IMG/VR virus record: IMGVR_UViG_2698536506_000010
Origin: a virus
Taxonomy: Duplodnaviria; Heunggongvirae; Uroviricota; Caudoviricetes
Length of the DNA: 43,693 bases
Direction: 5' to 3' (one strand)
Made by a program: the position numbers and the translations under genes. Numbering within the stretch: the stretch's first letter is position 1; each line of letters begins with the position of its first letter. Shown here in pieces: positions 21,544 to 43,693 of the stretch. The notes beneath the pieces were generated by a model. It was not told the DNA's origin, did not search any database, and worked only from the letters and a program-made list of their open reading frames with translations.

Positions 21544-21544
21544 T

Positions 21545-27004: not shown

Positions 27005-27013
27005 GGAATCAGC

Positions 27014-27307: not shown

Positions 27308-27310
27308 CAG

Positions 27311-27332: not shown

Positions 27333-27369
27333 ATGCCCCGCTCCGGCGGGGTATTTCACGGAGTCGATA

Positions 27370-27771
27370 ATGGTAACTCTCGAACAGGCGAAGGAGTATC
27401 TGGAGAGCCAGGGAATTACCATTCCCGATTTTGTTCTTCAGGCTCTCGTCGACCAGGCCAACAGCATACAGGAGTGTCTCGATGCACATTATCCTGCATC
27501 GACCTCGCTGTTGATTCAGCTCTATCTGCTGGCGCTTATGGGGCTCGGGCAGGGGGATAAATACATCTCCAGCCAGACGGCTCCAAGCGGGGCGTCGCGC
27601 TCTTTCAGGTACCAGTCGTTTACCGATCGCTGGAAGGCCTCGGTTAACCTGTTGCGAGGGCTGGATAAATACGGTTGTGCCACCTCCCTGATCCCTGCCG
27701 ACCCTACCGCCACCCCGGCATTCGCTGGTATCTGGATCGGTAAGGGCGGCTGCATGTGCGGGGATAAGTGA
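27370..27771 (+). CDS. Putative head-tail connector / head completion protein (133 aa)
   Basis: Position between capsid and tail genes. Confidence 0.35.
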   Translation: MVTLEQAKEYLESQGITIPDFVLQALVDQANSIQECLDAHYPASTSLLIQLYLLALMGLGQGDKYISSQTAPSGASRSFRYQSFTDRWKASVNLLRGLDKYGCATSLIPADPTATPAFAGIWIGKGGCMCGDK

Positions 27772-27944
27772 TGACGTACAAATCAGTTAAGCACGGGCTG
27801 CCACGTTCGTTTACCCGCGTCTGGGTGATTACCGACACAGGGCGGGAGACTACCGGCTACGTGAAATCGGACGGCGAGTGGCATATCAACTGCCCGCGCA
27901 TCCGGGCGACTGGCGCGAAGGTGCTGCGCTGGAAGGAGGGCTGA
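27771..27944 (+). CDS. Hypothetical small protein (57 aa), not in the ORF track
   Basis: ATG overlaps the upstream stop; its stop overlaps the ATG of the next gene. Confidence 0.3.
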   Translation: MTYKSVKHGLPRSFTRVWVITDTGRETTGYVKSDGEWHINCPRIRATGAKVLRWKEG

Positions 27945-28300
27945 TGTCGTCTACAGCTTCATGGTCCTACAACAAGCCGTGCACGATATGGCGTAAGGGC
28001 GCGGGCGGTAATGACGAGTGGGGCGATCCTGTCGACCCATACGAACCGCCTGAAACCATCATGTGCGACTACATCGGCGGTCTGTCAGCAAAGCTCGGGT
28101 CAATCGGTAAAGAGGTTGTCGTTAAGAACACCTTCTTTACTGCGTATGCGTTGGCTGATGAGGGCGATTACATCCTGATTGGTGTGAGCACTGAACCGGA
28201 CCCGGTCGTGGCCGGTGCCGATGAGGTGCGTCACGTGACGCGCTGGAACGATACTCTCGACGGTCTGGAAGATGACTGGGCGATAATTACGGGAGTGTAG
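27944..28300 (+). CDS. Hypothetical head-tail joining protein (118 aa)
   Basis: Internal ATG at 27944 coupled to the upstream ORF. Confidence 0.4.
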   Translation: MSSTASWSYNKPCTIWRKGAGGNDEWGDPVDPYEPPETIMCDYIGGLSAKLGSIGKEVVVKNTFFTAYALADEGDYILIGVSTEPDPVVAGADEVRHVTRWNDTLDGLEDDWAIITGV

Positions 28301-28302
28301 CC

Positions 28303-28671
28303 ATGGGCATCAAAGTGCGCGGCGTTAAGCAGTCGAAAGTCGGGCTCAACCGCATCATAAACGACGTCAAAGGGCGCAAGGTCGTCAGGGCGCTACAGTC
28401 AGCAATGATAATCGGCAGCTCCCAGGCCGCGCTTTACACGCCGATCGACACCTCGACGCTGTTGAATAGCCAGTATCGGGAGTTGATAAACAGCGGCGTT
28501 CGGCTGACAGGGCGTGTCGGATACACGGCGAACTACGCTGTGTTCGTTCATGATCCGAATGTGCCGCAAACCTTCCGCCGCGCAACCGCGCAGAAAGAGT
28601 TCCTCACAAAAGGCTTTGAAGATACCCGCAGCCAGATTGATGCCGTAATGCGCAAGGAGCTTTCAGTATGA
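28303..28671 (+). CDS. Putative tail completion protein (HK97 gp10-like) (122 aa)
   Basis: Position and size; motif AALYTPIDTSTLLNS. Confidence 0.4.
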   Translation: MGIKVRGVKQSKVGLNRIINDVKGRKVVRALQSAMIIGSSQAALYTPIDTSTLLNSQYRELINSGVRLTGRVGYTANYAVFVHDPNVPQTFRRATAQKEFLTKGFEDTRSQIDAVMRKELSV

Positions 28672-29051
28672 CGCCTGCCATGTATGAGCGCGTGCGTAAC
28701 TACTTCGTTGATGCCGGGCTTACCACTGGCTTCATTGTTCAGTTGCTGGCATGGGACGACACAAAGAAGCTAACCGATGCATTCATAGTTTTCCGGCCCA
28801 ACGGCGGGTCGAACATCCGTAACGACCTTGGCGCCGATCACTATGTATTGGTAGATATCATCTCCGCCAAGGACAAACGCCGCGCGGCAGCAGAGAAGGC
28901 TCAGGAAATCATCAATTATGTCGAACAGAACGACATTGCCGACGAGTGCCTTGGTCTGATTCAAAACCTCGGCAATATGCCTGCACCCATCCTGACCGAA
29001 GAGGGGCGCCTGGTCTTCAGACTCCAGTTCATGTGCGTTTACGGCGAATAA
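28668..29051 (+). CDS. Putative tail terminator / minor tail protein (127 aa)
   Basis: Overlaps the upstream stop; immediately precedes the major tail protein gene. Confidence 0.4.
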   Translation: MTPAMYERVRNYFVDAGLTTGFIVQLLAWDDTKKLTDAFIVFRPNGGSNIRNDLGADHYVLVDIISAKDKRRAAAEKAQEIINYVEQNDIADECLGLIQNLGNMPAPILTEEGRLVFRLQFMCVYGE

Positions 29052-29070
29052 CCCAATCACCAACCCATCA

Positions 29071-29096
29071 GGCTGCCATCCGGCGGCCTTTTTTAT
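29071..29096 (+). terminator. Rho-independent terminator or attenuator
   Basis: GGCTGCC-atcc-GGCGGCC hairpin (one G-U pair) followed by TTTTTTATTT. Confidence 0.45.
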
Positions 29097-29109
29097 TTGA
29101 GAGGTACAC

Positions 29110-29865
29110 ATGCAAGGCTGTGCTAATGATTTTGGCAAGCTGATCGGGAAAGTAGCTGTGCTACGCATGGCCTTTGGCTGCCCCGACGCAGTGCCAGCGC
29201 TTTCTGAGTGGAAGCGTCTCGGCGCTATGACGACCAAGGGTATCGACTATTCGATGAACACCATTAACTCCGAAGCTGATGATGCTAAAGGGCTGGTGGA
29301 AAACTTGGTCAACAACATGGATCTGACGATCTCCGGTGAAGGGGAGTTCCGCAAATCTGATAAAGATAACGAGATCGGCGCGTGGCGTCTGTCGAAGTAC
29401 ATCTTTGACGAAGTTCAGGCAGGCCGTCAGCCTAACCTGTGGGTGCGTTTCGACTTCGCTGGTGAGAACGCCGGTACTTACATCCAGGGTTACATGAACA
29501 CAACGTCATGGTCTGGTGATTTCGGAACCAACGATATCTCCACGTTCTCCGGCGAGTGGAAGGTATATGACGCCGACACCGTTGTGTTTGAAGTCGCTGA
29601 TTCCATCGCGGCCACTGGCGTCGAAGTTACCCCTGCAACTGCTTCCCTGGTCGTTGGCGCAACCCAGCAGCTGAGCGGCGCAGTTCAGCCAACCGATGCG
29701 ACTAACAAGGCGATCACCTGGACGACTTCGGCGGCCTCTATCGCCACTGTCAGCTCAACCGGCCTGGTAACGGCCGTCTCCGCCGGCACCGCGACTATTA
29801 CGGCTACCACTGCTGACGGTGACTTCACCGATACCTGCGCTGTTACCGTGACAGCCGCGCCGTAA
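29110..29865 (+). CDS. Major tail protein with C-terminal Ig-like (Big_2-type) domain
   Basis: C-terminal TATGVEVTPATASLVVGATQQL...ITWTTSAASIATVSSTGLVTAVSAGTATITATTADGDFTDTCAVTV is a classic Big_2 pattern; located before chaperone and tape measure. Confidence 0.7.
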   Translation: MQGCANDFGKLIGKVAVLRMAFGCPDAVPALSEWKRLGAMTTKGIDYSMNTINSEADDAKGLVENLVNNMDLTISGEGEFRKSDKDNEIGAWRLSKYIFDEVQAGRQPNLWVRFDFAGENAGTYIQGYMNTTSWSGDFGTNDISTFSGEWKVYDADTVVFEVADSIAATGVEVTPATASLVVGATQQLSGAVQPTDATNKAITWTTSAASIATVSSTGLVTAVSAGTATITATTADGDFTDTCAVTVTAAP

Positions 29866-29915
29866 TCACTACAAAGGGCGGCGTGCTGCCCTTGATACTG
29901 GTTATGGAGAACGAT

Positions 29916-30659
29916 ATGACACCCTTGAAAGAGATTGGCGAGTGCATGATTGGTGCTGGAGAGCGGGAATATTTCTTCCGGCCATCGTTCCGTAACATGA
30001 CGCGGATCGGTGAACCAGAGCATATCGTCCGCACTTTCTACGCGCTGTTCAATGACGACGTGGCGAAGATGCTTGAGGCGGCGCGCGAAATTCACAGTGC
30101 GATACCAGAGCATCAGCGCAGATTTTACGCCCACTATATCGGTGACGTTTCGCTGCCACGCTGGGCACTTGATGCAGCAGGCTCTGCCGCGTTTGTGCGT
30201 GAGGCATTACTCTCGGCTATTAACGTCATTCAGTCCTGCTGTGAAGAGGAAGTTTCAGAGCTGACAGGCTGGCATGAGCCATCACGCACTGGACGGCGCA
30301 CATTCGTATGGCACCGCGGCGCGCTTCCGCCTGAGAACCTTATTCTGATAGCGCAGTCGCTGATCATGCATGGTGTTATCGGCAGGGCCAAGGTTCGTAA
30401 ATTGCAGAAGCACGAAAGCAAGGAAACGACGCCGGAGTTTCACGCGACTGAATACATCATGGCGGCGAGAAACCATTTCGGGATCAGCAGGGAAGAGGCT
30501 GAAAACCTTACCATGACCGAATTCGCCATGATGCTTAACGCCAAATACCCTGACCAGAAAGGCTTCACCAGGGAAGAGTACGACGCTGTTATGGACGATG
30601 ACGATCGCCGCTGGCAGGAAATGGTTGAGCGCGAAAAATCAGCAAAAAAAGCGGCCTGA
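29916..30659 (+). CDS. Putative tail assembly chaperone (247 aa)
   Basis: Between major tail and tape-measure genes; start could also be ATG 29904. Confidence 0.45.
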   Translation: MTPLKEIGECMIGAGEREYFFRPSFRNMTRIGEPEHIVRTFYALFNDDVAKMLEAAREIHSAIPEHQRRFYAHYIGDVSLPRWALDAAGSAAFVREALLSAINVIQSCCEEEVSELTGWHEPSRTGRRTFVWHRGALPPENLILIAQSLIMHGVIGRAKVRKLQKHESKETTPEFHATEYIMAARNHFGISREEAENLTMTEFAMMLNAKYPDQKGFTREEYDAVMDDDDRRWQEMVEREKSAKKAA

Positions 30660-30731
30660 GTTAATAATGAATGTACCGTAATCGCCTGACCGGGCGTAAT
30701 ATGGCTCGACAATAAAACTCAGGGGATAAGA

Positions 30732-31106
30732 GTGAAGAAAATACTTTTGGCTTTGGCTATTCCGCTGGCTCTGGCTGGCTGCAAGCCGGGTGAAGAAAAG
30801 GCAATTTCTTTGGCGCAATCAGAAGTTTCAGCAAACCTGCTTGATCCAAGCAGTGCGCAATTCCGCAACGTGAAAGTTGCAAAAATGATGGATGCTGACG
30901 AGGGCCGGGTCTTTGCTGTAGTTTGCGGGGAAATTAACGGCAAGAACGGTTTTGGGGCCTATGCAGGGTTTCATCCATTCTTCGTTGAGCTCAAAATGAA
31001 ATCGAAGGGGATGTTCTCAAAAGGTGTCGACTACACCCTTGGTGATCACTTCCTCAGCTCGAAAGATACGCCACCACCGCCGGCCTACATCGAACGATGC
31101 CAATAA
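30732..31106 (+). CDS. Lipoprotein moron inside the tail gene cluster (124 aa)
   Basis: Signal peptide with lipobox (MKKILLALAIPLALAGC); GTG start with AGGGGA RBS; own terminator. Confidence 0.55.
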   Translation: MKKILLALAIPLALAGCKPGEEKAISLAQSEVSANLLDPSSAQFRNVKVAKMMDADEGRVFAVVCGEINGKNGFGAYAGFHPFFVELKMKSKGMFSKGVDYTLGDHFLSSKDTPPPPAYIERCQ

Positions 31107-31122
31107 ACGACACGAATAACAA

Positions 31123-31147
31123 ACCCACCAACCGGTGGGTTTTTTTA
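31123..31147 (+). terminator. Rho-independent terminator after the lipoprotein gene
   Basis: CCCACC-aacc-GGTGGG hairpin followed by TTTTTTT. Confidence 0.6.
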
Positions 31148-31163
31148 TGCCCGGAGAAAACTG

Positions 31164-33467
31164 ATGTCTGAGAAAGCAGGCGAGATTTATTACGACATCG
31201 AGGCCGATGTATCTGGCTTGCTCAAGGCCCAGGGAAAGGCTAATAAGTCGCTCGACTCCATCGGCAACTCGGCGACCAATGCAGCCAAAAAGATGGATGA
31301 GTTGCAGACGAACATCAACCGCGTCGCCGGGGCAATTGCCGCCTCACTCGTTGTTGACTGGGGTAAGGCGTTTCTCGTAGCTGCTGACAACATGAGCCAG
31401 CTCAACGCGCGTATAGAGAGGCTCACTGGTAGCGCAGCGACAGCCTCGCAGACTATGCAGAATCTGATGCGCATCAGTTCGGCAACGGGTGGTTCGCTAC
31501 AGGATACAGCAAAGCTGTGGGAGACTCTCAGCACGGCGTTGCGCGATACCGGAGCGACCAACGGCCAGATAATCCAGCTTACCGAAACACTTCAGAAAAT
31601 AGGTCGCATTGGCGGATCCTCGACAGAAGAAATGGCGAATGCTCTTCGTCAGTTCGGCCAGTCAATTTCATCAGGTACTGTCCGGGCGGAGGAGTTCAAC
31701 TCCATCCTTGAGCAAATGCCGGAACTGGCGCGCCAGATTGCCGCCGGGATGGGTGTAAGCATCGGAGAGCTTCGTCAGCTCATGCTGGACGGGAAACTGA
31801 CGGCAGAAGATGCTCTCAACGCCATTCAGAAGCAAACCGGCTCAGTGAATGCAGAGTTCGAGAAACTCCCGCGCACGCTTTCACAGGCTAATACCGCGCT
31901 GACAAACTCATTCCTGTCGATGATTGACTCTGTTAACCAGGCGACTGGAGCAAGCACAGGGCTGGTTGCGGTTATCGATTCAATGACTGCTGCACTCGAC
32001 CGGCTGGTGGGTAAAGCGGCGTCGGCAGATGCTCAGATATCGGATCTGAACAGCACCGCTGAAATGTTTACCCGCCGCGCGCGCACCTGGTCATGGCTTG
32101 GGCTTGATGGTTGGGAGGCGCAAAACAAAGCGCTGGCCGGGCTGAGTAATAAAGCCGCCATGCTGGTTGGCGACCTGGCCGCTGTTTCCAAAGCATCGCA
32201 GACCGCGGCTAACACAAAGCCGATCGAGATTAAAACGACCGCCTCAGCTACTGGCGGCAAAGCGAAAGGCGGAAAGTCTGCTGCACAGAAAGAAGCTGAG
32301 CAATACGCTAAAGCGCAGGACTCGATAAACGAAAAATTGGAAGCCCTGAGACAAGAATCTATTCTTGCAGCAGGTTCAACCAGCGAATTAACCCGTGAGC
32401 AGCAACTACTAAGGGCAGAGATGTCTCTTGGTGCCGATGCAACGGATGAACAGCGACAGAAGGCAAGAGAGTACAAAGCACAGGCTTTGGATACTGCTGA
32501 AGCATTGAAAAAGCAAGCCCAGGCAGAAAGAGATAAGCAAGCTGCGCAGTCCAACTTCAGCAGCCTACAAAGCCAAGCTTCTCCTGTGGCTAGCGTTGAA
32601 AGCCAGTTTCAGCAGCAGATTGAGCAACTCAACCAGTACGCTGCGCTCTATCCTCAGAAAATAGCTGAGGTAGAGGCTGTAAGGGCTAGCATTGAGGAGC
32701 AATATCGCCAAAAAAGACTCGATGCTCAGTGGCAAGAATTAAGTCAAATGAATATCGGCTTCGGCATGCTAACGAGTGCCGTGGATGCCTTTGGCGGAAA
32801 CGCATCAAACGTCATAACTGGACTGATCACAGGAACGATGTCAGCTCAGGATGCTATGCGCTCACTCGGTAACACGATGCTGAATAGCGTGGTAAATGCG
32901 CTAGTCCAGGTTGGGGTTGAGGCTCTCAAAAACTTCATTATCGGTCAGACATTGGGCGCAGCAGCTACTGCTGCTGGAGCATCTCAGGCTGCAATCTTGG
33001 CTACAGCTTGGGCTCCTGCCGCCGCCATGGCTAGCCTCGCTTCATTTGGGGCCAACTCAGTTCCTGCCATGACAGGAATTGCTTCAACGGTAGGCCTGGC
33101 ACAGGGCCTTGCTTTAACCGGTATGCGTTACAATGGCGGCCCGGTGAATGCAGGAGGTCTTTATCAGGTCGGTGAGCGAGGGAAACCTGAGATTTACCAG
33201 GCCAGTACCGGTAAGCAGTACATGATACCGGGCGACAACGGCAGGGTGATCAGCAATAAGGACATGACTTCGGGTGGAGGGGGCGGTGCTCCGATTCTCA
33301 ACATCTACAACTACTCATCCGCGTCTGTAGATGCTCAGGCTACACAGAACGGTGATGGTTCATGGACGCTTGAAGCTTTTATAGCTGACATGAATAACGG
33401 CGGCCCGGCAAGCAACGCCATTACCAGCAACATGAACGTTAAACGCACGCCAAGAGGGCAGGGCTGA
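31164..33467 (+). CDS. Tail tape measure protein (767 aa)
   Basis: Long Ala/Gln-rich alpha-helical protein at the expected tail position; lambda gpH-like N-terminal region (GELRQLMLDGKLTAEDALNAIQKQTG). Confidence 0.85.
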   Translation: MSEKAGEIYYDIEADVSGLLKAQGKANKSLDSIGNSATNAAKKMDELQTNINRVAGAIAASLVVDWGKAFLVAADNMSQLNARIERLTGSAATASQTMQNLMRISSATGGSLQDTAKLWETLSTALRDTGATNGQIIQLTETLQKIGRIGGSSTEEMANALRQFGQSISSGTVRAEEFNSILEQMPELARQIAAGMGVSIGELRQLMLDGKLTAEDALNAIQKQTGSVNAEFEKLPRTLSQANTALTNSFLSMIDSVNQATGASTGLVAVIDSMTAALDRLVGKAASADAQISDLNSTAEMFTRRARTWSWLGLDGWEAQNKALAGLSNKAAMLVGDLAAVSKASQTAANTKPIEIKTTASATGGKAKGGKSAAQKEAEQYAKAQDSINEKLEALRQESILAAGSTSELTREQQLLRAEMSLGADATDEQRQKAREYKAQALDTAEALKKQAQAERDKQAAQSNFSSLQSQASPVASVESQFQQQIEQLNQYAALYPQKIAEVEAVRASIEEQYRQKRLDAQWQELSQMNIGFGMLTSAVDAFGGNASNVITGLITGTMSAQDAMRSLGNTMLNSVVNALVQVGVEALKNFIIGQTLGAAATAAGASQAAILATAWAPAAAMASLASFGANSVPAMTGIASTVGLAQGLALTGMRYNGGPVNAGGLYQVGERGKPEIYQASTGKQYMIPGDNGRVISNKDMTSGGGGGAPILNIYNYSSASVDAQATQNGDGSWTLEAFIADMNNGGPASNAITSNMNVKRTPRGQG

Positions 33468-33964
33468 TGCCAATTATCGACTATCCCGACTGGCTGCCGC
33501 TGGCGCAGAAGGCCAGCAAAAACATGACTCTCGATACCGGGTTCCAGACCGATCAGCCAGCGGTCGGCCCGGCTATCTTCGAGAATCAAACCGACGACCT
33601 GAAAGTGACCTGGTCGCTGACGTGGATCTTCACTCTGGCTGAGGAGCGAGCATTCCAGCAGTGGCTGCGCAGCCCAAACTATCTCAACCGGGGCCTGAAC
33701 TGGTTCAGGATGAATATCAATCTGGGCGGCAGTGGTCTCCAGTTGCAAGAGCTTCACTTCACGCAGATGCCGGTGCAAACCAGTATCGACGGCGGGGTGG
33801 TGACATGGACAGGAACCGTTATTGCCAACCATCTGTACAACGCTGACGACGAGTTTGACGACGTAATTGTTGAGCTGCCGCCGCCGTGGCCTTCAGTGCT
33901 TGATATCGTGGTGACTGGCTATCCGGACGGACGCGATCCAGAAAGTCTTCCGAGGGTTCCCTGA
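33467..33964 (+). CDS. Minor tail protein (lambda gpM position) (165 aa)
   Basis: Start overlaps the tape-measure stop. Confidence 0.45.
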   Translation: MPIIDYPDWLPLAQKASKNMTLDTGFQTDQPAVGPAIFENQTDDLKVTWSLTWIFTLAEERAFQQWLRSPNYLNRGLNWFRMNINLGGSGLQLQELHFTQMPVQTSIDGGVVTWTGTVIANHLYNADDEFDDVIVELPPPWPSVLDIVVTGYPDGRDPESLPRVP

Positions 33965-34434
33965 TGCCTTCATATCGTGAATATAATCAGAAGCGCCCGA
34001 TTAGCGGCTGTTACAACACCATCACGTTCTATCACCCCTCCTTTGGTTACGTCCGCCTCGTCGACAAACAGTTCTTCCCGAAGACGCTTGGCGGCCAGAC
34101 GTACACGCCTGCGCGGTTTGAAATCGAAGAGAGCCAGCAGAGCGGAACTCCGGTAATCGACGCAACGGTGAAGCTTGGGCGACTGTCTTCAGATATCAAA
34201 ACGCTGATGAAGAAGTGGAGTGGTGTTTCCAGGCTGTCGCCTATCACGGCAACTCGTCAGGTTTTCGATAGAGTTGATACCTCTACGCCAATGAAGAATT
34301 GGACATTATTTGTAAAAACTGTCGATGTTGTTTCAGATAACGCATCAGTTACTTTATCAATGACAAACCCGCTAAATAACAACATTGGCCAACCATATGA
34401 TCCAGTCGAATACACGGGGCTTCAGTACCTCTGA
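33964..34434 (+). CDS. Minor tail protein (lambda gpL position) (156 aa)
   Basis: Start overlaps the upstream stop. Confidence 0.45.
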   Translation: MPSYREYNQKRPISGCYNTITFYHPSFGYVRLVDKQFFPKTLGGQTYTPARFEIEESQQSGTPVIDATVKLGRLSSDIKTLMKKWSGVSRLSPITATRQVFDRVDTSTPMKNWTLFVKTVDVVSDNASVTLSMTNPLNNNIGQPYDPVEYTGLQYL

Positions 34435-34447
34435 TTTTATCAGCAGG

Positions 34448-34813
34448 ATGATCGGCGTGCCGTGGTCTAACCGCGCCTGCTCATTCGAAAAGACTGATTG
34501 CTGGGGGCTGGTTGTGCTGTATTACCGACATGTGCTCGACATTGAGCTGCACCAGACGCCGGGTTACGAAGCCGGGGAGGATTTCTTCACCTGCTATCAG
34601 GGAGACGTCGTTTTCTGGCGCAAGGTCGATAAACCGGTCGACGGGGGGATATTTGTCGGGTACCGCGGCGCGCAACCGGCGCACGTTGGCCTGGTACTGA
34701 ACCGGCAGGCGCTGCACTCGCGTGGAGAGAACGGAAGCGTGCGCATGGACTCGTTGCTGGTCATTCAGCGGGCATTCACCAAAGTGGAGTTTTTCGAATA
34801 TGGCGCTGGTTGA
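34448..34813 (+). CDS. NlpC/P60-family tail protein (lambda gpK-like) (121 aa)
   Basis: Candidate catalytic Cys (TDCWGLV) and His (PAHVGLV) in NlpC/P60-like spacing; gpK position. Confidence 0.5.
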   Translation: MIGVPWSNRACSFEKTDCWGLVVLYYRHVLDIELHQTPGYEAGEDFFTCYQGDVVFWRKVDKPVDGGIFVGYRGAQPAHVGLVLNRQALHSRGENGSVRMDSLLVIQRAFTKVEFFEYGAG

Positions 34814-37277
34814 GATATCGAATTTTCCAGGAACGCCTAAGCTGCGTTGCAGGGTGCCAAACGGCACCCTTTTTTATGACTGGCTGGCGGCCAATGACGC
34901 CACTTTCCACCGCGATCTGCTGATCGTCCGCAACGGCGTAAAGCTGGGCGACGATGATGAGCTGGCGTTTGAGCTGAGCGAGCTGGACCACATCCAGATA
35001 TTCGACCAGCCAAAGGGTATTGTCGATGACATCCTGAGCCCGATCTTTAAAGTGGTTGGTCAGGTATTTTCTTTCCTGGCGCCGAAGCCAGCTATTGCAA
35101 ACAACGGCGGTAATACCGTCGACTCGCCCAACAATAGCCTGACCGGTCAGACAAACACCGCGCGCGTCTACAAAGCCAAGCCGGACATCTACGGGCAGAT
35201 TCGTTCGTTCCCGGATCTGATCCAGGAATCAGTATTCGAATCCGTACACCAGACTTCCACAGACGGCGGCCTGAAGTACGTCACTGAATGGATGTGTATT
35301 GGGATCGGCAAATACGATTACGAGTCTGTGCGCTACTCAGAATCAAGCCTGGGCTCTCTGGCTGGTGCCGAATTCCAGTTCTTCCAGCCAGGAGAAGTTA
35401 TCCCGCAGATCGTCGAGGGATACGGGTTCGATGACGTTGACGGCCAGGAGGTTCCCGGGCAGAACGAAGCCAGCGACTTCCCGATCGAAACAGCAACGGC
35501 AAACACGGTGGTCAGCGGAACGTATTCCGGCGGCCAGATAGCGATGAAAATCGTGAAACAAGCCGAGTTCGATTATTTCATGGGGCTGGTTCTGCCGCAC
35601 GCTGTGACTTTCACCATCAACGTGACGTACAGCACGGCCTCAGGCAGCGTCACCACCGACGCGACATTCTCAGGCACGCTGATTTCAGCGGTTGAAACAA
35701 ACGACGGTGCAGTGGTTAACCCGGTGCGCTGGTACACGTTTACGATGAACCAGCTCGAGGGACCACAGGACATCCCGGCGAATGCCACTATCAACACCAC
35801 GAAATTCATCCTCAACGATAACGAGGCGCTGGTGGTTGGGCCGTTCTTTTCCCCGGTCGAGTCAACGCAGCTGTGGCTGCATACCCAGTCCAGCCTCGGT
35901 GGTAAGAAGGAGACAAACTGGAAGGTTGTCATCTGGAAAATCGACGACGACTACAACCAGGTGCCGGGAACGCAGCAGACGTTTACGTACCGGCAGACGA
36001 CGCCGCACCAGTCGACGAGCGAGGTGTTTTATCGCACTGACAAGATCACTCCGACCGGCGGGTTCGGGAAATACGCGGTCAGCTTCCAGCGCACGGATAA
36101 CTCCGGTGACGCGTCACTGCTGAAGGTAGAAGAGATCCACAGCATCAACATCAGGACAAACGTCGTTCACCCGACCGACACGCTTGTGCGAGTAAAAGTC
36201 CGGGCGACAGAGAACGCTCTTGGCAGCCGCGAGCGCAAATATAACGCACTGGTGACGCGCCATACCATTACGTACGACCTGGACACGCAGACGGTGGATT
36301 ACACCCTGAGGCCGTCGCGCTCGTTCGCTGATGCAGTGGCTCACACCTGGCTCATCATGGGTGAGCAGCCGGTAAGCAGCATTGACCTGTACGGGCTGTA
36401 CTCGATCGCCGAAAGCCTGCCTGATGAGCGACTGGGCTACTTCGACTACACGTTTGACGACGAGAACGACTCACTCGGCGACCGCGTGCAGGCGATCTGC
36501 AATGCGGCGTCGGTGGTGGCGTACTGGGATGACGGCGTGCTGACGTTTACTCGAGACCAGAAGGTTGATTACCCGGCGGCCGTATTCAACCGGGCCAACA
36601 TGAAGACGGACGAGTACAAAATGACGTACGAAGCTACTCTTCCAGGCGGTTATGACGGCGTGCAGGTGTCCTACGTTCACCCGACCACGAACAACAAGAC
36701 GTACATCAACTACCGCGTGCTGAACGGCGCTATCGTTGAACAGGAAGCGGAGAACCCGAACAAGCTGGAGATCGTCGGCTTCCGTAATGAGTATCAGGCC
36801 AGGGAGCGAGCTCTGCGCGAAACCAAGCGCCTGATCTACTCGCGCGTGAAGATGAACGCGAAAGTGTTTGAGGACGGCATTATCCAGGTCGGTAGCGTCA
36901 TCCAGATGCCAGACATCTATGACAGCAACCAGCAGGGTGGTTACGTCACCGGCCGCTCCGGGAATGACTTCGATACCAGCGAGCCGATCACGTTTACCGG
37001 CTCGATGTATGTGCTGGTTACCGACAGCCTGGGTAACCCAACTCTGCGTTATCCGGCCACCGCCCGTAGCGACACGAAGTACGGATTCACCGCGGCTATC
37101 CCTAACATTCAGCTCAACATATGGAACGGTGACACTGTGCAGCTACCGTCGCGCTATCTCATCGCGACAGTGGAAGAGCTGGACAGTCAGCTATGGACGG
37201 TCAACAGCATCAAACCGAACACAGACAATACGGTTTCCCTGACGATCGCAGAGTACAGCGACGCCATCTACCAATAA
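34800..37277 (+). CDS. Tail tip / host specificity protein (J-like) with possible gpI-like N-terminal domain (825 aa)
   Basis: Large protein after the K-like gene; N-terminal about 90 aa (LFYDWLAANDATFHRDLLIVRNGVKLGDDDELAFELSELDHIQIF) resembles tail assembly protein I. Confidence 0.55.
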   Translation: MALVEISNFPGTPKLRCRVPNGTLFYDWLAANDATFHRDLLIVRNGVKLGDDDELAFELSELDHIQIFDQPKGIVDDILSPIFKVVGQVFSFLAPKPAIANNGGNTVDSPNNSLTGQTNTARVYKAKPDIYGQIRSFPDLIQESVFESVHQTSTDGGLKYVTEWMCIGIGKYDYESVRYSESSLGSLAGAEFQFFQPGEVIPQIVEGYGFDDVDGQEVPGQNEASDFPIETATANTVVSGTYSGGQIAMKIVKQAEFDYFMGLVLPHAVTFTINVTYSTASGSVTTDATFSGTLISAVETNDGAVVNPVRWYTFTMNQLEGPQDIPANATINTTKFILNDNEALVVGPFFSPVESTQLWLHTQSSLGGKKETNWKVVIWKIDDDYNQVPGTQQTFTYRQTTPHQSTSEVFYRTDKITPTGGFGKYAVSFQRTDNSGDASLLKVEEIHSINIRTNVVHPTDTLVRVKVRATENALGSRERKYNALVTRHTITYDLDTQTVDYTLRPSRSFADAVAHTWLIMGEQPVSSIDLYGLYSIAESLPDERLGYFDYTFDDENDSLGDRVQAICNAASVVAYWDDGVLTFTRDQKVDYPAAVFNRANMKTDEYKMTYEATLPGGYDGVQVSYVHPTTNNKTYINYRVLNGAIVEQEAENPNKLEIVGFRNEYQARERALRETKRLIYSRVKMNAKVFEDGIIQVGSVIQMPDIYDSNQQGGYVTGRSGNDFDTSEPITFTGSMYVLVTDSLGNPTLRYPATARSDTKYGFTAAIPNIQLNIWNGDTVQLPSRYLIATVEELDSQLWTVNSIKPNTDNTVSLTIAEYSDAIYQ

Positions 37278-37299
37278 GAACCGTCCCCGACCAACCGAA

Positions 37300-37323
37300 C
37301 CCGGCCACCGCGCCGGGTTTTTT
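37300..37323 (+). terminator. Rho-independent terminator between J-like and tailspike genes
   Basis: CCCGGC-caccgc-GCCGGG hairpin followed by TTTTTT. Confidence 0.55.
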
Positions 37324-37334
37324 ATGGAACTAAT

Positions 37335-39311
37335 ATGGCTACGACACCTACCAACCTGTCAGTACCGAGCGAGTCCCCCCGCGATCTGAAATTTAACGCA
37401 GGGAAAATTGATGAATTTGTGACATCGCTGGCACTTCAGTACATTGATCGCTTTGGCAATGCTCATTACACCATCGAAGGCCTGCGCTGGATGGCGCAGC
37501 AGGCTATTTCCCAGTATGGGTGGGTTCCGATCGGAACATTCCAGGATGGTGCAACATTAACTCTGCCTAACCAAATCCTGAAAGACACCACCGACGGTGA
37601 ATACTATCGCTGGGACGGTTCATTTTTGCCATCAGGGAAGGTTGTGCCAAATGGTTCTACGCCAGGATCAACAGGTGGGGTTGGTGTAGGTGCATGGATA
37701 AGTGTTGGTGATTCGGCATTGCGCTCAATGCTTGCTTCTGAGCAAGGAGTTTCCATGGTTGGCGGCATTGCCATGGAGCTCGACTCTCAGGCCGATTTGG
37801 CAACAAACACAACTGTTCAGGGACGGCTGGTGGCAGTAAAGAACACTGTCGGTAGTTACAATAAATACTCCATAATTCCAAACTCTGGTGTGCTTGGCGA
37901 TGGCGATGTAATCATCGACAGGGTGGATGGATTGCAGGCAGAGCTTCAGATTGAAGGGGTTCTGGATGTACGGGCTTTTGCAAAGTCTGGTAGGACAGAC
38001 CAACAAATAATTCAGGCGGAATTAGATTACGCTGGATCTAAATCAGGTCATTGGGTTGTTGGCTTGACGGCCAAAGATAAAACCGGAACACCATGGAGAT
38101 TCAGCACACTTAACGTACCTGACAGCACTGTTTTTCAGGGGCATGGTGGCGCTCTTAAGCTAAATGACAATGTCTGTGTCGATGCTTCAGTTAGCTATTA
38201 CTTGCTGCATAACATAAACGGCAATGATGTATGGCTGGACGGGTTATATATCGATGGCAATATGAGCAATAACTCCTTGTTCACCGTTGCTGATCTTGTA
38301 ACCCTCATCGGAGAAGGGTCAAAAATCACCAATTGCACCCTTATGAATGCCCCCGACTCTGGTCTAATGTTCTCAGGTGTAAAGAATGGTCTAGCGTCTG
38401 CAAACACCATCGGCAATGGCAGAGATGTTGCTATCTATGCAAATGCAAGCGCAGACGGCAGCGCAAGGAACAATGTGTTATCTGACAATGTTCTGTACGG
38501 ATTCCCGGCAGGAGGAATAGGATTTAAACGTTATTTTGCTGATTGTGTAGCCAGCGGGAACGCAATTTATCTCTGTGGAAACGGCGTGACATTTGAGGAC
38601 TTTACTGTTGAGACCGAAGGTAAATTCCCCAAAAGGATTACGCTGTCTGGTACTTTTATGCGAGACATCGGCTTTCCACACCGCGCCACTGCTAACGTAG
38701 CAGAGCGAGGAATTAGCATTCAGCGTGCCTCTGATATCAGCATCACTGGTCTTCAGACAGTTAACGTTTCTGGCAATATATTATACATTGGAAATGGCAC
38801 AGATATCTGCGTTGATAACGCCATGCTTAGAGGTTATGTTGCAAGTCCACAAAGCAACGGAAATAACGGAGTGCTAGTCGTTAATGCCCAAGGAGGGCAC
38901 CTGAGTAATGTGAATGTTACCGCAGTGGCAAGCAGGGCAGGATATTTCCAGACCGTTAATGGCATGTCCGTTCGTGGCGGAAGATGGGTCAGTTCAGGGA
39001 CTCAGTCTGGCATCAGGGTAGATGCTACCGCTCAATTTTCAATATTTAATCCTGACTATATTTCTGGTGGATCTGGAGCTGACGAAGAGTGGTTTGAAGG
39101 AGCAACAGGGATATCGAACGGATACATCCGGGCTAATGCAACAGGCCCAGGCAGATACGGAATAAGAGAGCTTTCTGCTGGGCAGGGCACTAACCCAAAT
39201 ACAAGGCTTATCCCCAGATTTATTGGAGAGAAATGCGTTACCTTGTCAGATAGCGCAATCTGGATGGCAAAAGGTATGTCTAACTCTGATTGGGTTAAGT
39301 TATCTAACTGA
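37335..39311 (+). CDS. Tailspike / receptor-binding protein with beta-helix polysaccharide depolymerase-like domain (658 aa)
   Basis: Gly/Asn/Ser/Val-rich repeats (NAIYLCGNG, ITGLQTVNVSGNILYIGNG, NGNNGVLVVNAQGG) typical of right-handed beta-helix tailspikes; lower GC in the C-terminal two-thirds. Confidence 0.65.
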   Translation: MATTPTNLSVPSESPRDLKFNAGKIDEFVTSLALQYIDRFGNAHYTIEGLRWMAQQAISQYGWVPIGTFQDGATLTLPNQILKDTTDGEYYRWDGSFLPSGKVVPNGSTPGSTGGVGVGAWISVGDSALRSMLASEQGVSMVGGIAMELDSQADLATNTTVQGRLVAVKNTVGSYNKYSIIPNSGVLGDGDVIIDRVDGLQAELQIEGVLDVRAFAKSGRTDQQIIQAELDYAGSKSGHWVVGLTAKDKTGTPWRFSTLNVPDSTVFQGHGGALKLNDNVCVDASVSYYLLHNINGNDVWLDGLYIDGNMSNNSLFTVADLVTLIGEGSKITNCTLMNAPDSGLMFSGVKNGLASANTIGNGRDVAIYANASADGSARNNVLSDNVLYGFPAGGIGFKRYFADCVASGNAIYLCGNGVTFEDFTVETEGKFPKRITLSGTFMRDIGFPHRATANVAERGISIQRASDISITGLQTVNVSGNILYIGNGTDICVDNAMLRGYVASPQSNGNNGVLVVNAQGGHLSNVNVTAVASRAGYFQTVNGMSVRGGRWVSSGTQSGIRVDATAQFSIFNPDYISGGSGADEEWFEGATGISNGYIRANATGPGRYGIRELSAGQGTNPNTRLIPRFIGEKCVTLSDSAIWMAKGMSNSDWVKLSN

Positions 39312-40572
39312 AGTCAGGCCGCTGATGCGGCCTTTTCTCTGATAAAAACTGATTTATTAACTGCATAGTGTAAATAAGCATTAATACTTGAAAAACGAAA
39401 AGTACTCTCTTGCCTGAGCCATATGCTGAAGGCGAGAACATAATCATCATCACTGACGCACACGCCAGGAGAATGGTGAAACAACTGTAAAATGCATCAT
39501 TTTTACACCTGGCATTAAAAACTGCGAGGCATATCATTGAACTAATTGTCAGTAGAGTCACTGCGTGAGATATGTAAACAGTAGTTCCAGCCCAATTACT
39601 TCCTGATAGATAATTAGAGTTTACCATTCCTTTGAATATATTCGCCCCAAGGAGAAAAGATAAGAACATTATTAATTTTACGGCTACAATCGCAGCCGAA
39701 ATTGATGGCAGGACTTTAAAATCTTTTCTTTTCACATAGAGTAACAACAAAGTAAGCATAGCGATATTGATTAGTACGTTGCCAGAAGATGATACGTGAC
39801 TGCTTAAGACATCCACACCTATTGATAGTTTTTGAAAGATGCCATAGCTAACGTAATCTGGAAGCCAGTTTTTTGACTCACTAAAATATCTTAACTTATT
39901 ACCGGGAGCAGAAAAAAGAATAATGGCGCAAGCAATAGTTGTAACGAACATTGCGGCTATGATTGGAGTTATCCTTTTGAGATAGATAGCTCTGCATGCT
40001 AGAAATATCAAGAAGCAGATAGATATCTGTTCGTTGAACCCAAAGTACATAGCAGGTAAAACAGAGAGTGACTTAAGTATAATATTTAATGATTTCTCGT
40101 TAAGTACTGCATAAACAGACAGTAGGCAAAGAGTTGCTGGCATTAGATAGTTATATGACCCTGCGATCCACCATGATGCATCCGCATTAACTTCAGGTTC
40201 TATTAAGAAAAACATAAATAAAGAAACTGTGAAAGGAATCATCGCTCCTTGCTTTTCTCGAAGAGTTATCTTACTTATAATAAAAGATATCAAAATAACA
40301 CATGCTGGTATGAAAGTTTTCCAAAAGTATTCATAACGTATTGTATAGACCATGAGAGCATCTATAGTTAATCTCCCACTCCATTTTATATATCTGTCAT
40401 ATATAACATCATATACATTAGAGTTTAAAAGCAAGCGTGAGAAATTTAAATCATCTCCTGAGTGACGCAAGGATAAACCAGAAAAAAGAAATGCAATAAT
40501 AGCGATAATAAGCATGGCGGCAGTGACTTTTATGGCCACTATCATTTTATTTGCATTGGTAATGGATTTCAT
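39304..40572 (-). CDS. Polytopic membrane protein, putative serotype-specific component of the O-antigen modification operon (422 aa)
   Basis: Many predicted transmembrane segments, very AT-rich, last gene of the gtrA-gtrB operon; overlaps the upstream ORF by 26 nt in another frame. Confidence 0.5.
   Translation of the reverse strand: MKSITNANKMIVAIKVTAAMLIIAIIAFLFSGLSLRHSGDDLNFSRLLLNSNVYDVIYDRYIKWSGRLTIDALMVYTIRYEYFWKTFIPACVILISFIISKITLREKQGAMIPFTVSLFMFFLIEPEVNADASWWIAGSYNYLMPATLCLLSVYAVLNEKSLNIILKSLSVLPAMYFGFNEQISICFLIFLACRAIYLKRITPIIAAMFVTTIACAIILFSAPGNKLRYFSESKNWLPDYVSYGIFQKLSIGVDVLSSHVSSSGNVLINIAMLTLLLLYVKRKDFKVLPSISAAIVAVKLIMFLSFLLGANIFKGMVNSNYLSGSNWAGTTVYISHAVTLLTISSMICLAVFNARCKNDAFYSCFTILLACASVMMIMFSPSAYGSGKRVLFVFQVLMLIYTMQLINQFLSEKRPHQRPDFS
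39316..39340 (+). terminator. Rho-independent terminator after the tailspike gene
   Basis: AGGCCGC-tgat-GCGGCCT hairpin followed by TTTCTCT. Confidence 0.5.
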
Positions 40573-41011
40573 AATTATGGAGTCCGTCGTTAATCAATAT
40601 AGCAATATTGCCAGTGAATTTTTTAACCTTTTTGTTTCTTACTTGAGAGTTAAACCCAGAGCGATCATAAAGCAATGGTTTTCCAAAAGCTCGACTTACA
40701 TCACTTCTTCTGGTCATTGACTTGGGTATGCGCAACCATTTATCTCCGCCTATGCCAGCATAGATATTAACACTATAAAGTGTTTGCAAATTGTAGTTTT
40801 TTACTGCTGCCCAACCATTAACTACAAGTCTGCCGTCCTCAACCCGGCATCTATCTATATGATATATAATTCCTGAACTTGTTTTAGCATTGTCAAATTT
40901 AAATGTCGAAACGTCTGCTTTGTTAATATAAAAATAAAAGCCAGCAGGCAACATAATAGATGTTACAAACAATCCGACAAGTAATGTTTTTACAGGTAGT
41001 GAGACCTTCAT
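40547..41011 (-). CDS. Membrane-anchored protein (154 aa), possible N-terminal part or partner of the serotype-specific component
   Basis: N-terminal transmembrane helix then soluble domain; ATG overlaps the gtrB stop. Confidence 0.4.
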
Positions 41012-41925
41012 CCTTTCCTCTTCAAAATATATCTAGGACGGCTCTTTACTTCGGTGTAAATTCTTCCGATGTACTCACCAAGCACCCCGATACCAATCAA
41101 TTGGACTCCACCAAGGAAAAGGATAGAAACAAGAAGTGACGGGTAGCCCCGCACTGCGTTACCAAAAGCAAGGGTATCAACTATCATCCATGAGCCATAG
41201 AGGAGCGCCACGCCTGCAACCAGAAGGCCGATGTAAGTCCACATGCGAAGCGGGAAAGTAGAGAAACTCGTGATACCCTCAAGTGCCAGGTTCCACAACT
41301 TCCAGCCGTTAAATTTCGTACTTCCTGCGACGCGTTCTGCGCGGGCATATTCAACGACATCTGTACGGCCGCCAACCCAGCTCAATACGCCCTTCATGAA
41401 CAGGTTGCGCTCTGGCATGAGCTTAATGTTTTCCACCACCTCGCGGGACATAAGGCGGAAGTCACCAACGTTTTCTTCAATCTTCGGGTTGCTGATTTTG
41501 TTGTGCAGCTTATAGAACCATTCAGCGGTCTTGCGCTTCAGTCTGCCATCTGTAGAGCGATCAGAGCGTTTAGCGAGAACCATATCAGCACCGGCCTGCC
41601 ATTTCTCGATAAGGTGAGGAATGACTTCGATAGGGTCCTGCAAGTCTACGTCAATCGGGATAATTGCTTCACCGGTCGCGTGGTCAAGGCCGGCGAACAG
41701 GGCTGGTTCTTTCCCAAAGTTACGAGTAAATGACAATGGAACAACAAGCGTATCGGCAACAGCAAGCGCGTTAATAATTGATTCTGTCGCGTCTTTGCTG
41801 CCGTCATTGATGAATACTATCTCGACTTCATGCTGCTGAAGGCCTTCAAATTCCCGAACCGTTTTATAAAAAATCGGTATCGCGTCTTCTTCGTTGAAGA
41901 CGGGAACGACCAGAGAAATTTTCAT
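41008..41925 (-). CDS. gtrB: GtrB-like bactoprenol glucosyltransferase (GT2 family)
   Basis: GT2 hallmarks ([25 protein letters not shown]), C-terminal transmembrane helices, length about 305 aa; coupled to gtrA. Confidence 0.85.
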
Positions 41926-42284
41926 TTCGCATCCCTAAAGACAATAAACTTAGAATAGAAAAAGCCACATACAAGACTAATGGCGGAGAACGCCACCAGT
42001 GTGACGATTGGCGGTAAGCCACACCTGTCAGCAGCCCAACCTACAGCAGCACTCAGCGTTCCCATAAACCCAACGTAAAGCATGTAACGCAGCGTGGAAG
42101 TGGATGCTTTAAAAGTGAAGCGTGCGTTAGCGTAGAAACTAAAGCTGACGGCTACCACGAAACCTGCAAAGTTAGCCAATGCCTGACTTGTGGATAGGCC
42201 ATACACGCAAACACCAAACACGACCCAGTGAATGAGTGTGTTCAGTACGCCAATCGATGTGTACTTAGCAAAAAGTTTTAACAT
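41922..42284 (-). CDS. gtrA: GtrA-like flippase for bactoprenol-linked glucose
   Basis: About 120 aa, four predicted transmembrane helices, begins [20 protein letters not shown] as in GtrA-family proteins; first gene of the operon. Confidence 0.8.
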
Positions 42285-42360
42285 TAGAAAAATCAGTCAA
42301 TTCTGAGAAGGCAGAAGTTTAGCACCAACAAACAACTTGATCGACTATCAGAATAAGATG

Positions 42361-42380
42361 TACTGTATATGTGTACAGTA
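42361..42380. promoter_or_regulatory. LexA (SOS) box
   Basis: TACTGTATATGTGTACAGTA matches the CTGT-N8-ACAG consensus closely; about 20 nt upstream of the ATG at 42400. Confidence 0.7.
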
Positions 42381-42399
42381 TTTATTTTTGGGTGACTAT

Positions 42400-42639
42400 A
42401 TGCCGCGTCGTTCAGATATCGTGATCGCCTTCAGAGCCTCTATTGTGCATGAAAGGTCAGGCCGCAGGATTGTGAAAACTGCTGATTTTGTTCAGGAACT
42501 ACTAAAGGTCAACTGGGACCTAAGTATGGAAGAGGCGAATCAGTGGATAGATAGGTACACAACCTGCTTCAAAGACATCACTCCTGACCACGGAGAGAAC
42601 AAGACGTGGTTCATGTACAACCCGAATGGAGGGCTTTGA
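42400..42639 (+). CDS. Hypothetical SOS-regulated small protein (80 aa)
   Basis: First ORF after the LexA box; stop lies 1 nt before the UmuD'-like start; no family recognised. Confidence 0.4.
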   Translation: MPRRSDIVIAFRASIVHERSGRRIVKTADFVQELLKVNWDLSMEEANQWIDRYTTCFKDITPDHGENKTWFMYNPNGGL

Positions 42640-42640
42640 T

Positions 42641-43024
42641 ATGGCATTTGCATCCCCGGCTAAGGACTATGTGGAGCGCGGCATCTCTTTAGATGCTGAG
42701 TTGATTAGCCATCCATCGGCGACTTACTATGTCAGGTCTGATGTGGCTATTTTGCGTGCCGGCATTAAGCAAGGCGCGCTGCTTGTCGTGGACTCAGCAG
42801 TAAATCCATGTGATGGCTCGATCGTTCTCTGTTCCATCGATGGCCAGTTTGTCCTGAGGTATTACCGTATGTTCCCATGCTTGCATCTGGAGAACATGGA
42901 GACAGGTCGGAAGGAAAGGGCGCGCGGACTCGACGACGGAAGTGCAATCGATGTTTTCGGCGTGGTGACATACATCATTAACAATGCGCGCACCGGTGAA
43001 TTCGACGACAACCCGGTTATTTAA
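42641..43024 (+). CDS. UmuD'-like protein (HumD-like), pre-truncated and lacking the Ser/Lys catalytic dyad (127 aa)
   Basis: Aligns with E. coli UmuD from about residue 25 (SPAKDYVE..., HPSATYYV, LLVVDSA, DVFGVV); Ser60 and Lys97 positions are Ala/Val and Arg; GGAGGG RBS. Confidence 0.65.
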   Translation: MAFASPAKDYVERGISLDAELISHPSATYYVRSDVAILRAGIKQGALLVVDSAVNPCDGSIVLCSIDGQFVLRYYRMFPCLHLENMETGRKERARGLDDGSAIDVFGVVTYIINNARTGEFDDNPVI

Positions 43025-43693
43025 TCAGACGGGCTCGATTAACTCCGGGCCCTGATTCTTCACATTACCAACAGCGCGCGACACTGCGTGCCAGATAAAT
43101 GCATCTGCTGGCACCGAACCGTCGGAAACAATCTCCTCTGCTTCTTTCCCGCCCACATCCTGCCGCATCCATTCGCGTGCTGCTTCCGGTGACAGAACGA
43201 GTTGCCTGCGGTCGTGAATATCGACCAGTCCTTTATCGGCAGCCGCCGTGACTATCATAAAGCCTTCCGCTTCATCATCACGCTCAAACGGCGTACTGCC
43301 TATCGCCGCCATGAATATCGGCTTACCGTCCGCCCGATGAATGAAGTACGGCTGCTTCTTTTCGCCTTGCTTCTTCCATTCGAACCAGCCATCAGCAAAG
43401 ACTATCGCCCGGCCATGTTGCCAGAGCGGTTTGAACATCCGACTGGTGGCCGCAGTTTCCACACGTGCGTTTATCAGAGGCGGCTTATCCCACCATCCTG
43501 GAGCATAGCCCCAGTAAACCGGATCGAGGTGTAGTTGTTCATCTCGTTCGCTCAGCAGCAAAACTTTAGTGCCTGGCGCCACGTTGTACCGGCCAATGGG
43601 TTCCGGGTCGAACGGAATGTCACACTCGGCCTCTTCAGCGATTAACGCCAGATAATCTTCACGGGTCATTGATTGAGAGAAACGTCCGCACAT
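43025..43693 (-). CDS. yedK: YedK-like SOS-response-associated peptidase (SRAP / abasic-site processing protein)
   Basis: Canonical N-terminus MCGRF with Cys2, conserved blocks (RYNVAPGT, PLINARVET, FADGWFEWKK); ATG occupies the last three bases of the window. Confidence 0.8.
   Translation of the reverse strand: MCGRFSQSMTREDYLALIAEEAECDIPFDPEPIGRYNVAPGTKVLLLSERDEQLHLDPVYWGYAPGWWDKPPLINARVETAATSRMFKPLWQHGRAIVFADGWFEWKKQGEKKQPYFIHRADGKPIFMAAIGSTPFERDDEAEGFMIVTAAADKGLVDIHDRRQLVLSPEAAREWMRQDVGGKEAEEIVSDGSVPADAFIWHAVSRAVGNVKNQGPELIEPV

Follow-up and report, generated by a model that had tools for sequence, protein, structure and literature searches.

The gtr operon of an Escherichia coli prophage, IMG/VR record IMGVR_UViG_2698536506_000010 (43,693 nucleotides (nt), the whole stretch being referred to here as the window), probably encodes a Gtr system of four genes, the additional one coding for a member of a domain family not described before. 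Its product is a membrane-anchored protein of 154 amino acids (aa), encoded by a small open reading frame (ORF) that lies between gtrB and a large ORF for a polytopic membrane protein. We put the probability that the small protein joins the large one in carrying out the transfer step, the two forming a bipartite serotype-specific glucosyltransferase, at roughly 0.6. The coordinates of all features are collected in Table 1.

Two separate genes conserved as a pair

The operon occupies the minus strand at the right end of the window and comprises gtrA, gtrB, the small ORF and the large ORF. A first-pass annotation, made from the sequence alone, had described these four ORFs and the coupling of gtrA to gtrB. 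All four were recovered with the same coordinates, and 4-nt overlaps (ATGA) were seen at both the gtrA/gtrB and the gtrB/small-ORF junctions. Also as first described, the small ORF shares 26 nt with the large ORF, which is read in another frame. The length of this overlap hinges on the choice of start codon, because the large ORF has a second in-frame ATG at codon 10 (40545-40543), 1 nt past the TAA stop codon of the small ORF (40549-40547). Initiation at codon 10 would give a protein of 413 aa, the length recorded for the same protein at NCBI (P0002). Under either start, the small and large genes are separate and tightly coupled.

The first-pass annotation had left two explanations for this layout, namely a novel two-component module or a single gtrC-type gene split by a frameshift, in which case the ORFs would be fragments of a pseudogene or of a slippage-controlled phase-variable gene. 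A split gene would fit the sharing of 26 nt in differing frames. It would also fit the observation, which holds for Shigella phage SfV and phage epsilon34, that classical gtr clusters carry one gene at this position, where the window has an extra one. The related locus L004 nevertheless decides against it. L004 comprises gtrA, gtrB, a 152-aa ORF and a 416-aa ORF, the last two intact and with the same 26-nt overlap, at amino acid identities to the window of only 48% (small proteins) and 46% (large proteins). Synonymous divergence between L004 and the window has reached saturation, yet both frames have remained open, against 11-40 stop codons in the alternative frames; the ratio of nonsynonymous to synonymous differences (pN/pS) is ~0.5 for both genes, with a nonsynonymous divergence (dN) of 0.48 and a synonymous divergence (dS) of ~2 for the small gene. 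Two conserved genes with the same overlap are the pattern that the first-pass annotation had itself named as the mark of a two-gene module, and its frameshift, pseudogene or phase-variable alternative is rejected on this evidence.

Other observations also make a split gene extremely improbable. Intact pairs occur in loci more distant than L004, and homopolymers in the overlap do not exceed 4 nt. Alignment of the large ORF to the DUF6056 profile (from profile position 10 on) begins at its own N-terminus and runs through its first transmembrane (TM) helix (TM1) and an Asp-Asp (DD) motif. The small ORF has its own family of ~150-aa stand-alone proteins, dozens of which keep the terminal Cys-Lys-stop. 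A fusion of the two would join a small-protein C-terminus that we infer to be periplasmic to a large-protein N-terminus that is presumably cytoplasmic, which is topologically inconsistent. Exact copies of the window locus were found in several draft assemblies of E. coli, as well as in one contig from IMG/VR (L001-L003 and L006).

Beyond L004, and among the family members with retrievable genomic context, we found seven further, more distant arrangements (nine loci) in which a homologue of the small gene, encoding ~150 aa, lies directly 5' of a polytopic membrane gene. Five of these are intact, in that the small gene overlaps the large gene, which encodes 407-410 aa where complete. In L009, the small gene and a gene for 410 aa overlap by 14 nt, and an overlap of the same length is found in L011, where the downstream ORF is cut by the contig end. 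L012/L013 carry gtrA, gtrB, the small gene and a gene for 407 aa, again with a 14-nt overlap, beside Mu-like baseplate and tail genes. The pair in L017/L018 (small gene plus 407 aa, 26-nt overlap) is chromosomal and located beside carotenoid genes, with gtrAB not adjacent. L019 contains a truncated upstream ORF in the position of gtrB, followed by the small gene and a DUF6056 gene for 408 aa (17-nt overlap); it also has a convergent Tail_spike_N tailspike gene, a layout that matches that of the window. The partners in the remaining two arrangements are shortened and no longer overlap the small gene: L008 has gtrA, gtrB, the small gene and a DUF6056-like gene of 285 aa (5809-6666), and L010 has the small gene and a DUF6056 gene of 342 aa (904-1932). 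These two may be decaying copies, or their start codons may have been mis-called.

Relatives of the small protein can be divided by the presence of a conserved cysteine pair, described below. Wherever the contig of a Cys-type relative reaches the downstream gene, the small gene is directly 5' of a polytopic DUF6056-like gene, the partners (window included) being 407-422 aa where complete and the overlaps 14-26 nt. In six complete pairs, identity among the small proteins (25-47%) varies together with that among their large partners (28-46%; Pearson 0.87, Spearman 0.52). In the more distant, Cys-less loci L020/L021, a small relative is followed by an overlapping ORF that is truncated by the contig.

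This pattern argues that the partner of the small protein would be the transferase rather than GtrA or GtrB, and L017/L018 weigh most here, because the pair persists there without adjacent gtrAB. The small protein could instead serve another part of the pathway, by stimulating GtrB or GtrA, or by acting on Wzy, Wzz or WaaL to affect timing or chain length. Its gene is translationally coupled to gtrB through the 4-nt overlap, and small membrane activators of GtrB-like enzymes have a precedent in streptococci, where GacJ stimulates GacI. One Salmonella prophage gtrC has also been tied to O-antigen length (PMC4413052). We consider such a role quite unlikely, given not only L017/L018 but also that most of the small protein consists of a predicted extracytoplasmic domain of the disulfide type, whereas the catalytic domain of GtrB is cytoplasmic. 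Moreover, the small sequence co-diverges with the type-specific gene, whereas GtrB is nearly invariant (94% identity and a pN/pS of 0.07 between the window and L004).

The large protein is a short member of the DUF6056 family

The large protein matches PF19528 (DUF6056) over residues 18-414 with an E-value of 1.3e-13 (score 51 bits; cut-off 27); newer Pfam releases label this family 'GT_STM0557_N'. Its homologues in L004 and L012 also exceed the PF19528 threshold. The protein is distantly related to GtrC of Salmonella phage epsilon34 (BLASTP 2e-11 in the N-terminal TM region; tblastn 5e-5), the annotation of which notes a similarity to STM0557. In S. Typhimurium, the galactose of the O-antigen receives glucose through the STM0557-0559 locus (PMC3688519). 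No sequence relationship was detected between the large protein and GtrV of SfV.

The first-pass annotation had called the large protein polytopic and the small protein membrane-anchored, which agrees with at least eight strongly hydrophobic segments in the former and one hydrophobic helix in the latter. The DD motif of the large protein (residues 40-41) directly follows TM1. It is kept in epsilon34 GtrC, in the L017 and L019 proteins, and in the five aligned partners whose N-terminus is available (L010 has a truncated one). At least eight TM segments with a DD motif after TM1 is the arrangement expected for a GT-C-type enzyme, with the orientation of the loop inferred.

Epsilon34 GtrC is 551 aa in length, with DUF6056 at residues 8-393 followed by an extension of ~160 aa that has no Pfam assignment. 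The large protein of the window, like the partners of small proteins elsewhere, does not have such an extension. Because these partners are all 407-422 aa where complete, the comparison suggests by analogy that the small protein may supply in trans an extracytoplasmic module that long DUF6056 enzymes carry in cis.

The small protein and its family

The small protein consists of a TM helix (residues ~5-29) and a beta-sandwich domain of ~115 aa that resembles immunoglobulin (Ig) domains and carbohydrate-binding modules (CBMs). Conserved features include C55 and C153, the motifs IDxC, GWA, RxDV and YDxSGF, and the C-terminal Cys-Lys-stop. Pfam, NCBIfam, PHROGs and PADLOC contain nothing that matches it, and word-indexed searches of 5.8 billion proteins returned only its own cluster and the L004-type cluster. 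No match was obtained in a profile search of genome contigs with a two-sequence alignment of the small protein, and one viral-contig match (L007) was discarded as spurious, the site having no ORF and falling within a region for DNA ligase. When the two-sequence profile was run exhaustively with HMMER, 166 representatives of the family were recovered at E<=1e-3. About 90 of the 150 best-scoring matches are 130-175 aa in length and have the same layout of TM helix, motifs and penultimate cysteine. Members with a named source, all of them labelled 'hypothetical protein', are from E. coli, Rahnella, Chimaeribacter arupi and Phytobacter diazotrophicus, and none of 65 members searched against Pfam had a consistent family match. 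On the basis of these searches, the small protein is the founder of a family new to Pfam, NCBIfam, PHROGs and PADLOC.

AlphaFold2, when given an alignment of 65 sequences, modelled the small protein as a beta-sandwich of about eight strands, with a mean predicted local distance difference test score (pLDDT) of 93.9 and a predicted template modelling score (pTM) of 0.82; a model from the two-sequence alignment (pLDDT 55) was not used. Both cysteines are present in 62 of 106 short sequences, one in nine and neither in 35. Co-occurrence of this kind indicates a structural disulfide, and the domain would thus be extracytoplasmic. Foldseek matches to the PDB were to Ig-like domains only, and the fold matches are of the generic Ig, fibronectin type III (FnIII) and CBM-like kind. 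At the sequence level, the family profile matches the C-terminal domain of the Enterococcus faecium prophage amidase EfAmi1 (8c4d_A residues 217-306; E=1.5e-4), which the authors of that structure proposed as a new CBM (PMC10167349). Foldseek on viral models also returned the endolysin of Enterococcus phage vB_EfaP_Zip (E=6.7e-4).

The beta-sandwich domain is found in larger proteins as well (P0035, P0065, P0120, P0046, P0084, P0093, P0062 and P0015 are multi-domain examples). It occurs as two to six tandem repeats in TM-anchored proteins, as two or three copies at the C-terminus of proteins with seven to nine TM segments, several of them with DUF6311, and in an AlgX-like SGNH protein, a glucosaminidase/SH3 autolysin and a surface protein with a KxYKxGKxW signal; the C-terminal parts of the DUF6311, AlgX-like and autolysin proteins together span two to four copies. 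A DUF6311 fusion protein had no match among PDB sequences. From this distribution, the domain appears to be a widespread, unannotated module of cell-surface glycan enzymes.

A candidate bipartite glucosyltransferase

The first two proteins of the operon are typical of Gtr systems. GtrA matches PF04138 (9.8e-15) and phrog_2224 'GtrA-like O-antigen conversion' (1.3e-67), and GtrB matches PF00535 (GT2; 2.6e-29) and the GtrB families phrog_34335/phrog_841 (7e-179), with a C-terminus that is hydrophobic by sequence. Their amino acid identities to GtrA and GtrB of SfV are 85% and 88%, respectively. Since both are orthologous to the SfV proteins, the lipid-linked donor is almost certainly undecaprenyl-phosphate-glucose (Und-P-Glc). 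The phrog_34335 'GtrB' profile has 825 positions, of which the window GtrB matches 1-304 only; given this profile length, some phage GtrB proteins may be fused to another domain or protein.

In the proposed mechanism, GtrB would make Und-P-Glc on the membrane's cytoplasmic face, GtrA would bring it over to the periplasmic face, and the bipartite enzyme would then attach the glucose at a specific position within the O-antigen repeat. The large protein would be the DUF6056-type membrane glycosyltransferase core, with its catalytic-type DD motif in the first periplasmic loop. The small protein would be a single-pass partner that exposes a disulfide-bonded Ig/CBM-like beta-sandwich in the periplasm, where it would most likely dock on the transferase and help to bind or position the O-antigen acceptor; failing this, it may have a stabilizing or assembly role only. 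The modified O-antigen would be expected to block recognition of the lysogen by the tailspikes of its own and related phages.

That the small subunit contributes acceptor recognition or positioning is a more tentative proposal than joint action of the two proteins, and we hold it at somewhat under even odds. We are similarly cautious about two generalizations. The small family, with members in Escherichia, Rahnella, Chimaeribacter and Phytobacter, could be an obligate second subunit of a DUF6056 (GtrC-type) subclass in a four-component Gtr system, its domain being a general module for recognizing cell-surface glycans in enzymes that modify or cleave them in Gram-negative and Gram-positive bacteria, which is plausible but short of probable. 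It is likewise conceivable, rather than likely, that in this four-component subclass acceptor or linkage specificity resides partly in a separate, swappable polypeptide.

Several observations weigh against a bipartite enzyme. The Cys-less relatives in L022/L023 have no polytopic neighbour, their surroundings being an IS21 element and a large gene for a GT2/methyltransferase. The profile of the DUF6056 partner was not matched by any of the 55 longer family members retrieved, the fusions being to DUF6311-type and other proteins, and short DUF6056 proteins without a small partner exist in Gram-positive phages, such as VEsP-1. Nor did hhalign detect homology in sequence between the small family and the epsilon34 GtrC extension (probability 0.06). 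The positive-inside rule is indecisive on the orientation of the small protein, with one Lys/Arg residue in each flank of the TM helix. Neither a profile of the large protein nor epsilon34 GtrC matched any PDB sequence, and the GT-C fold of the large protein is putative.

The L022/L023 relatives, which adjoin other glycan genes, would also fit a second role for the small protein, as an independent envelope factor for lysogenic conversion or superinfection exclusion that merely rides in the gtr operon. Prophage moron slots often gather unrelated small membrane proteins, and the domain is present in non-Gtr proteins such as autolysins and surface repeat proteins. An unlinked passenger is nevertheless unlikely in view of the adjacency and overlap with DUF6056-like genes, which are kept down to ~25-47% identity in both phage and non-phage contexts, and of the matched divergence between small and large proteins; the empty PADLOC and PHROG searches also speak against it. 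A bipartite transferase accounts better for these features and remains our preferred interpretation. If the small protein proved dispensable, the finding would shrink to a new accessory moron family.

Prophage setting and the tailspike slot

The window is a lambdoid E. coli prophage that encodes RecE/RecT-like proteins, a CI-like repressor, CII, O/P-like replication proteins and a siphovirus tail, including a tape-measure protein and TipJ. The gtr operon is convergent with the tailspike gene, the stop codon of which overlaps that of the large ORF by 8 nt. A terminator-like hairpin lies within the last, non-conserved codons of the large ORF and is probably a bidirectional terminator shared by the two transcription units.

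Table 1. Position, strand and description of the window features referred to in the text.
Feature	Position	Strand	Description
Moron at the left prophage end	1626-2378	-	250-aa ORF; PHROG 'queuine tRNA-ribosyltransferase' (9.7e-95)
Tailspike gene	37335-39311	+	658 aa; Tail_spike_N (1.6e-16), Beta_helix (2e-6)
Large ORF	39304-40572	-	422 aa; polytopic DUF6056 ('GT_STM0557_N'); proposed catalytic core
Terminator-like hairpin	39316-39333	+	GC-rich, GGCCGC-TGAT-GCGGCC plus T-run; directly past the tailspike stop
Small/large dual-coding overlap	40547-40572	-	26 nt; small protein ends ...YEIHYQCK (stop), large protein starts MKSITNANK...
Small ORF	40547-41011	-	154 aa; single N-terminal hydrophobic helix; proposed periplasmic transferase subunit
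gtrB	41008-41925	-	305 aa; GT2 bactoprenol (Und-P) glucosyltransferase
gtrA	41922-42284	-	120 aa; PF04138, small membrane protein, putative Und-P-glucose flippase
Intergenic region 5' of gtrA	42285-42399		115 nt; presumed promoter site; LexA box, single GATC
GATC site	42339-42342		Only GATC in the 115-nt gap
LexA (SOS) box	42361-42380		Palindrome; 0 mismatches to TACTGT-N8-ACAGTA
79-aa ORF	42400-42639		phrog_3893; in the operon divergent from gtrA
UmuD-like gene	42626-43024		S24 peptidase; in the operon divergent from gtrA
S24 and SRAP genes	42626-43693		Directly abutting, no polymerase gene between

The GC content of the type-specific pair (35.3% for the small ORF and 35.8% for the large ORF) is far below that of the prophage backbone, which is mostly ~50-58% with a few 1-kb windows down to 45-49%; gtrA (46.6%) and gtrB (48.9%) are intermediate. 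The first-pass annotation was therefore right that the block is AT-rich, most strongly so in the type-specific pair. Its suggestion that the block is horizontally acquired cargo beside the tailspike is likewise supported by a sister prophage, L024, in the chromosome of E. coli 20A24. L024 has the same insertion site on the yciB/yciC/ompW side and ~91% backbone identity, and its region 27037-30741, which corresponds to window 37335-42284, contains instead a GDSL-esterase tailspike gene and a convergent O-antigen acyltransferase gene. The backbone similarity of ~90% to other E. coli prophages ends at around window position 37545, within the N-terminus of the tailspike. Since this place is taken up in L024 by another tailspike together with an acyltransferase, the slot looks like one that holds interchangeable pairs, each made up of an O-antigen-recognizing tailspike and an O-antigen-modifying enzyme. 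The cassette swap supports a putative role for the gtr block in O-antigen modification and self-exclusion.

The type-specific module was absent at the DNA level from 5,426 complete E. coli genomes. In phage GenBank records, the small protein had no tblastn match and the large ORF had only distant matches.

Two further observations concern other parts of the prophage. In the sister prophages H59-H65, one of the head genes bears the RefSeq annotation 'anti-CBASS protein Acb1 family protein'; the corresponding region of the window would fall somewhere within 20000-37500. The queuine tRNA-ribosyltransferase-like moron at the left prophage end (Table 1) may be linked to 7-deazaguanine DNA modification, judging from its profile match.

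Region upstream of gtrA

The gap between gtrA and the divergent operon, which comprises the 79-aa ORF and the UmuD-like S24 peptidase gene, contains a perfect LexA box (TACTGTATATGTGTACAGTA). This box may place the divergent operon, and possibly also gtr, under SOS control. Salmonella-type phase variation by Dam and OxyR was considered and rejected, as the paired-GATC pattern is absent 5' of gtrA: the gap has a single GATC and no pair, the next GATC (42423) being inside the divergent ORF, while OxyR sites themselves were not searched for. In the window, the S24 gene directly abuts the SRAP gene. The corresponding region of L024 (31094-33397) encodes an S24 peptidase, a Y-family DNA polymerase (umuDC-like) and an SRAP peptidase, and a pair of S24 peptidase and Y-family polymerase genes is also found 5' of the gtr operon in L012.

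Significance and comparison with known systems

The textbook way for a prophage to alter the O-serotype, vaccine epitopes and phage susceptibility of its host is a Gtr system. Literature searches for a fourth gtr gene, a bipartite GtrC or gtr module, and DUF6056 found nothing relevant. If the transferase is indeed bipartite, in-silico serotyping based on gtrC, as well as functional reconstitution, would need the two genes together and would otherwise fail in this subclass. The pair would also provide a tractable model of how GT-C-type membrane enzymes recognize a polymeric acceptor, with a recognition subunit that can be separated from the core. In addition, it would give a first functional context to an unannotated domain that is present in endolysin C-termini and thus of interest for the targeting of enzybiotics.

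The closest known counterparts are the classical Gtr systems, including those of Shigella phages SfV, SfII, SfX and SfI, Salmonella phage P22, and the E. coli prophage KpLE1 (yfdGHI). The window shares with them the operon order, a prophage location near the tail or tailspike genes, orthologous gtrA and gtrB, an AT-rich type-specific part, and the expected Und-P-Glc donor and periplasmic transfer to the O-antigen. Gtr systems have been described as consisting of three genes (PMC7685785; PMC11194591; PMC3688519), whereas the window has a fourth conserved gene between gtrB and the polytopic transferase and so is not a three-gene system. The transferase also differs from that of SfV, to which it is unrelated in sequence.

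The system of phage epsilon34 is more similar in its type-specific part. Its GtrC (STM0557-like) belongs to the same PF19528 family and has the DD motif after TM1, and its gtrC, too, comes directly after gtrB and converges on the tailspike gene. The epsilon34 enzyme differs in being a single protein of 551 aa with the ~160-aa extension, without a small gene before it, while the window has a protein of 422 aa with a 154-aa partner.

The beta-sandwich of the small protein is matched by the C-terminal domains of EfAmi1 (8C4D) and of the vB_EfaP_Zip endolysin. In these enterococcal proteins, which come from phages of Gram-positive hosts, the domain is fused to an amidase and has no TM anchor, whereas in the window it forms a stand-alone, TM-anchored protein encoded in a Gram-negative gtr operon. 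The C-terminal domain of EfAmi1 is not visible in the crystal structure and is uncharacterized.

A broader parallel can be drawn with membrane glycosyltransferases of the GT-C type. ArnT, PglB and the PMT/Emb-type enzymes combine a polytopic core and an acidic motif in the first loop with a built-in extracytoplasmic domain that contacts the acceptor. By analogy, the proposed enzyme of the window would have the same parts, but with the extracytoplasmic domain as a separate, membrane-anchored polypeptide.

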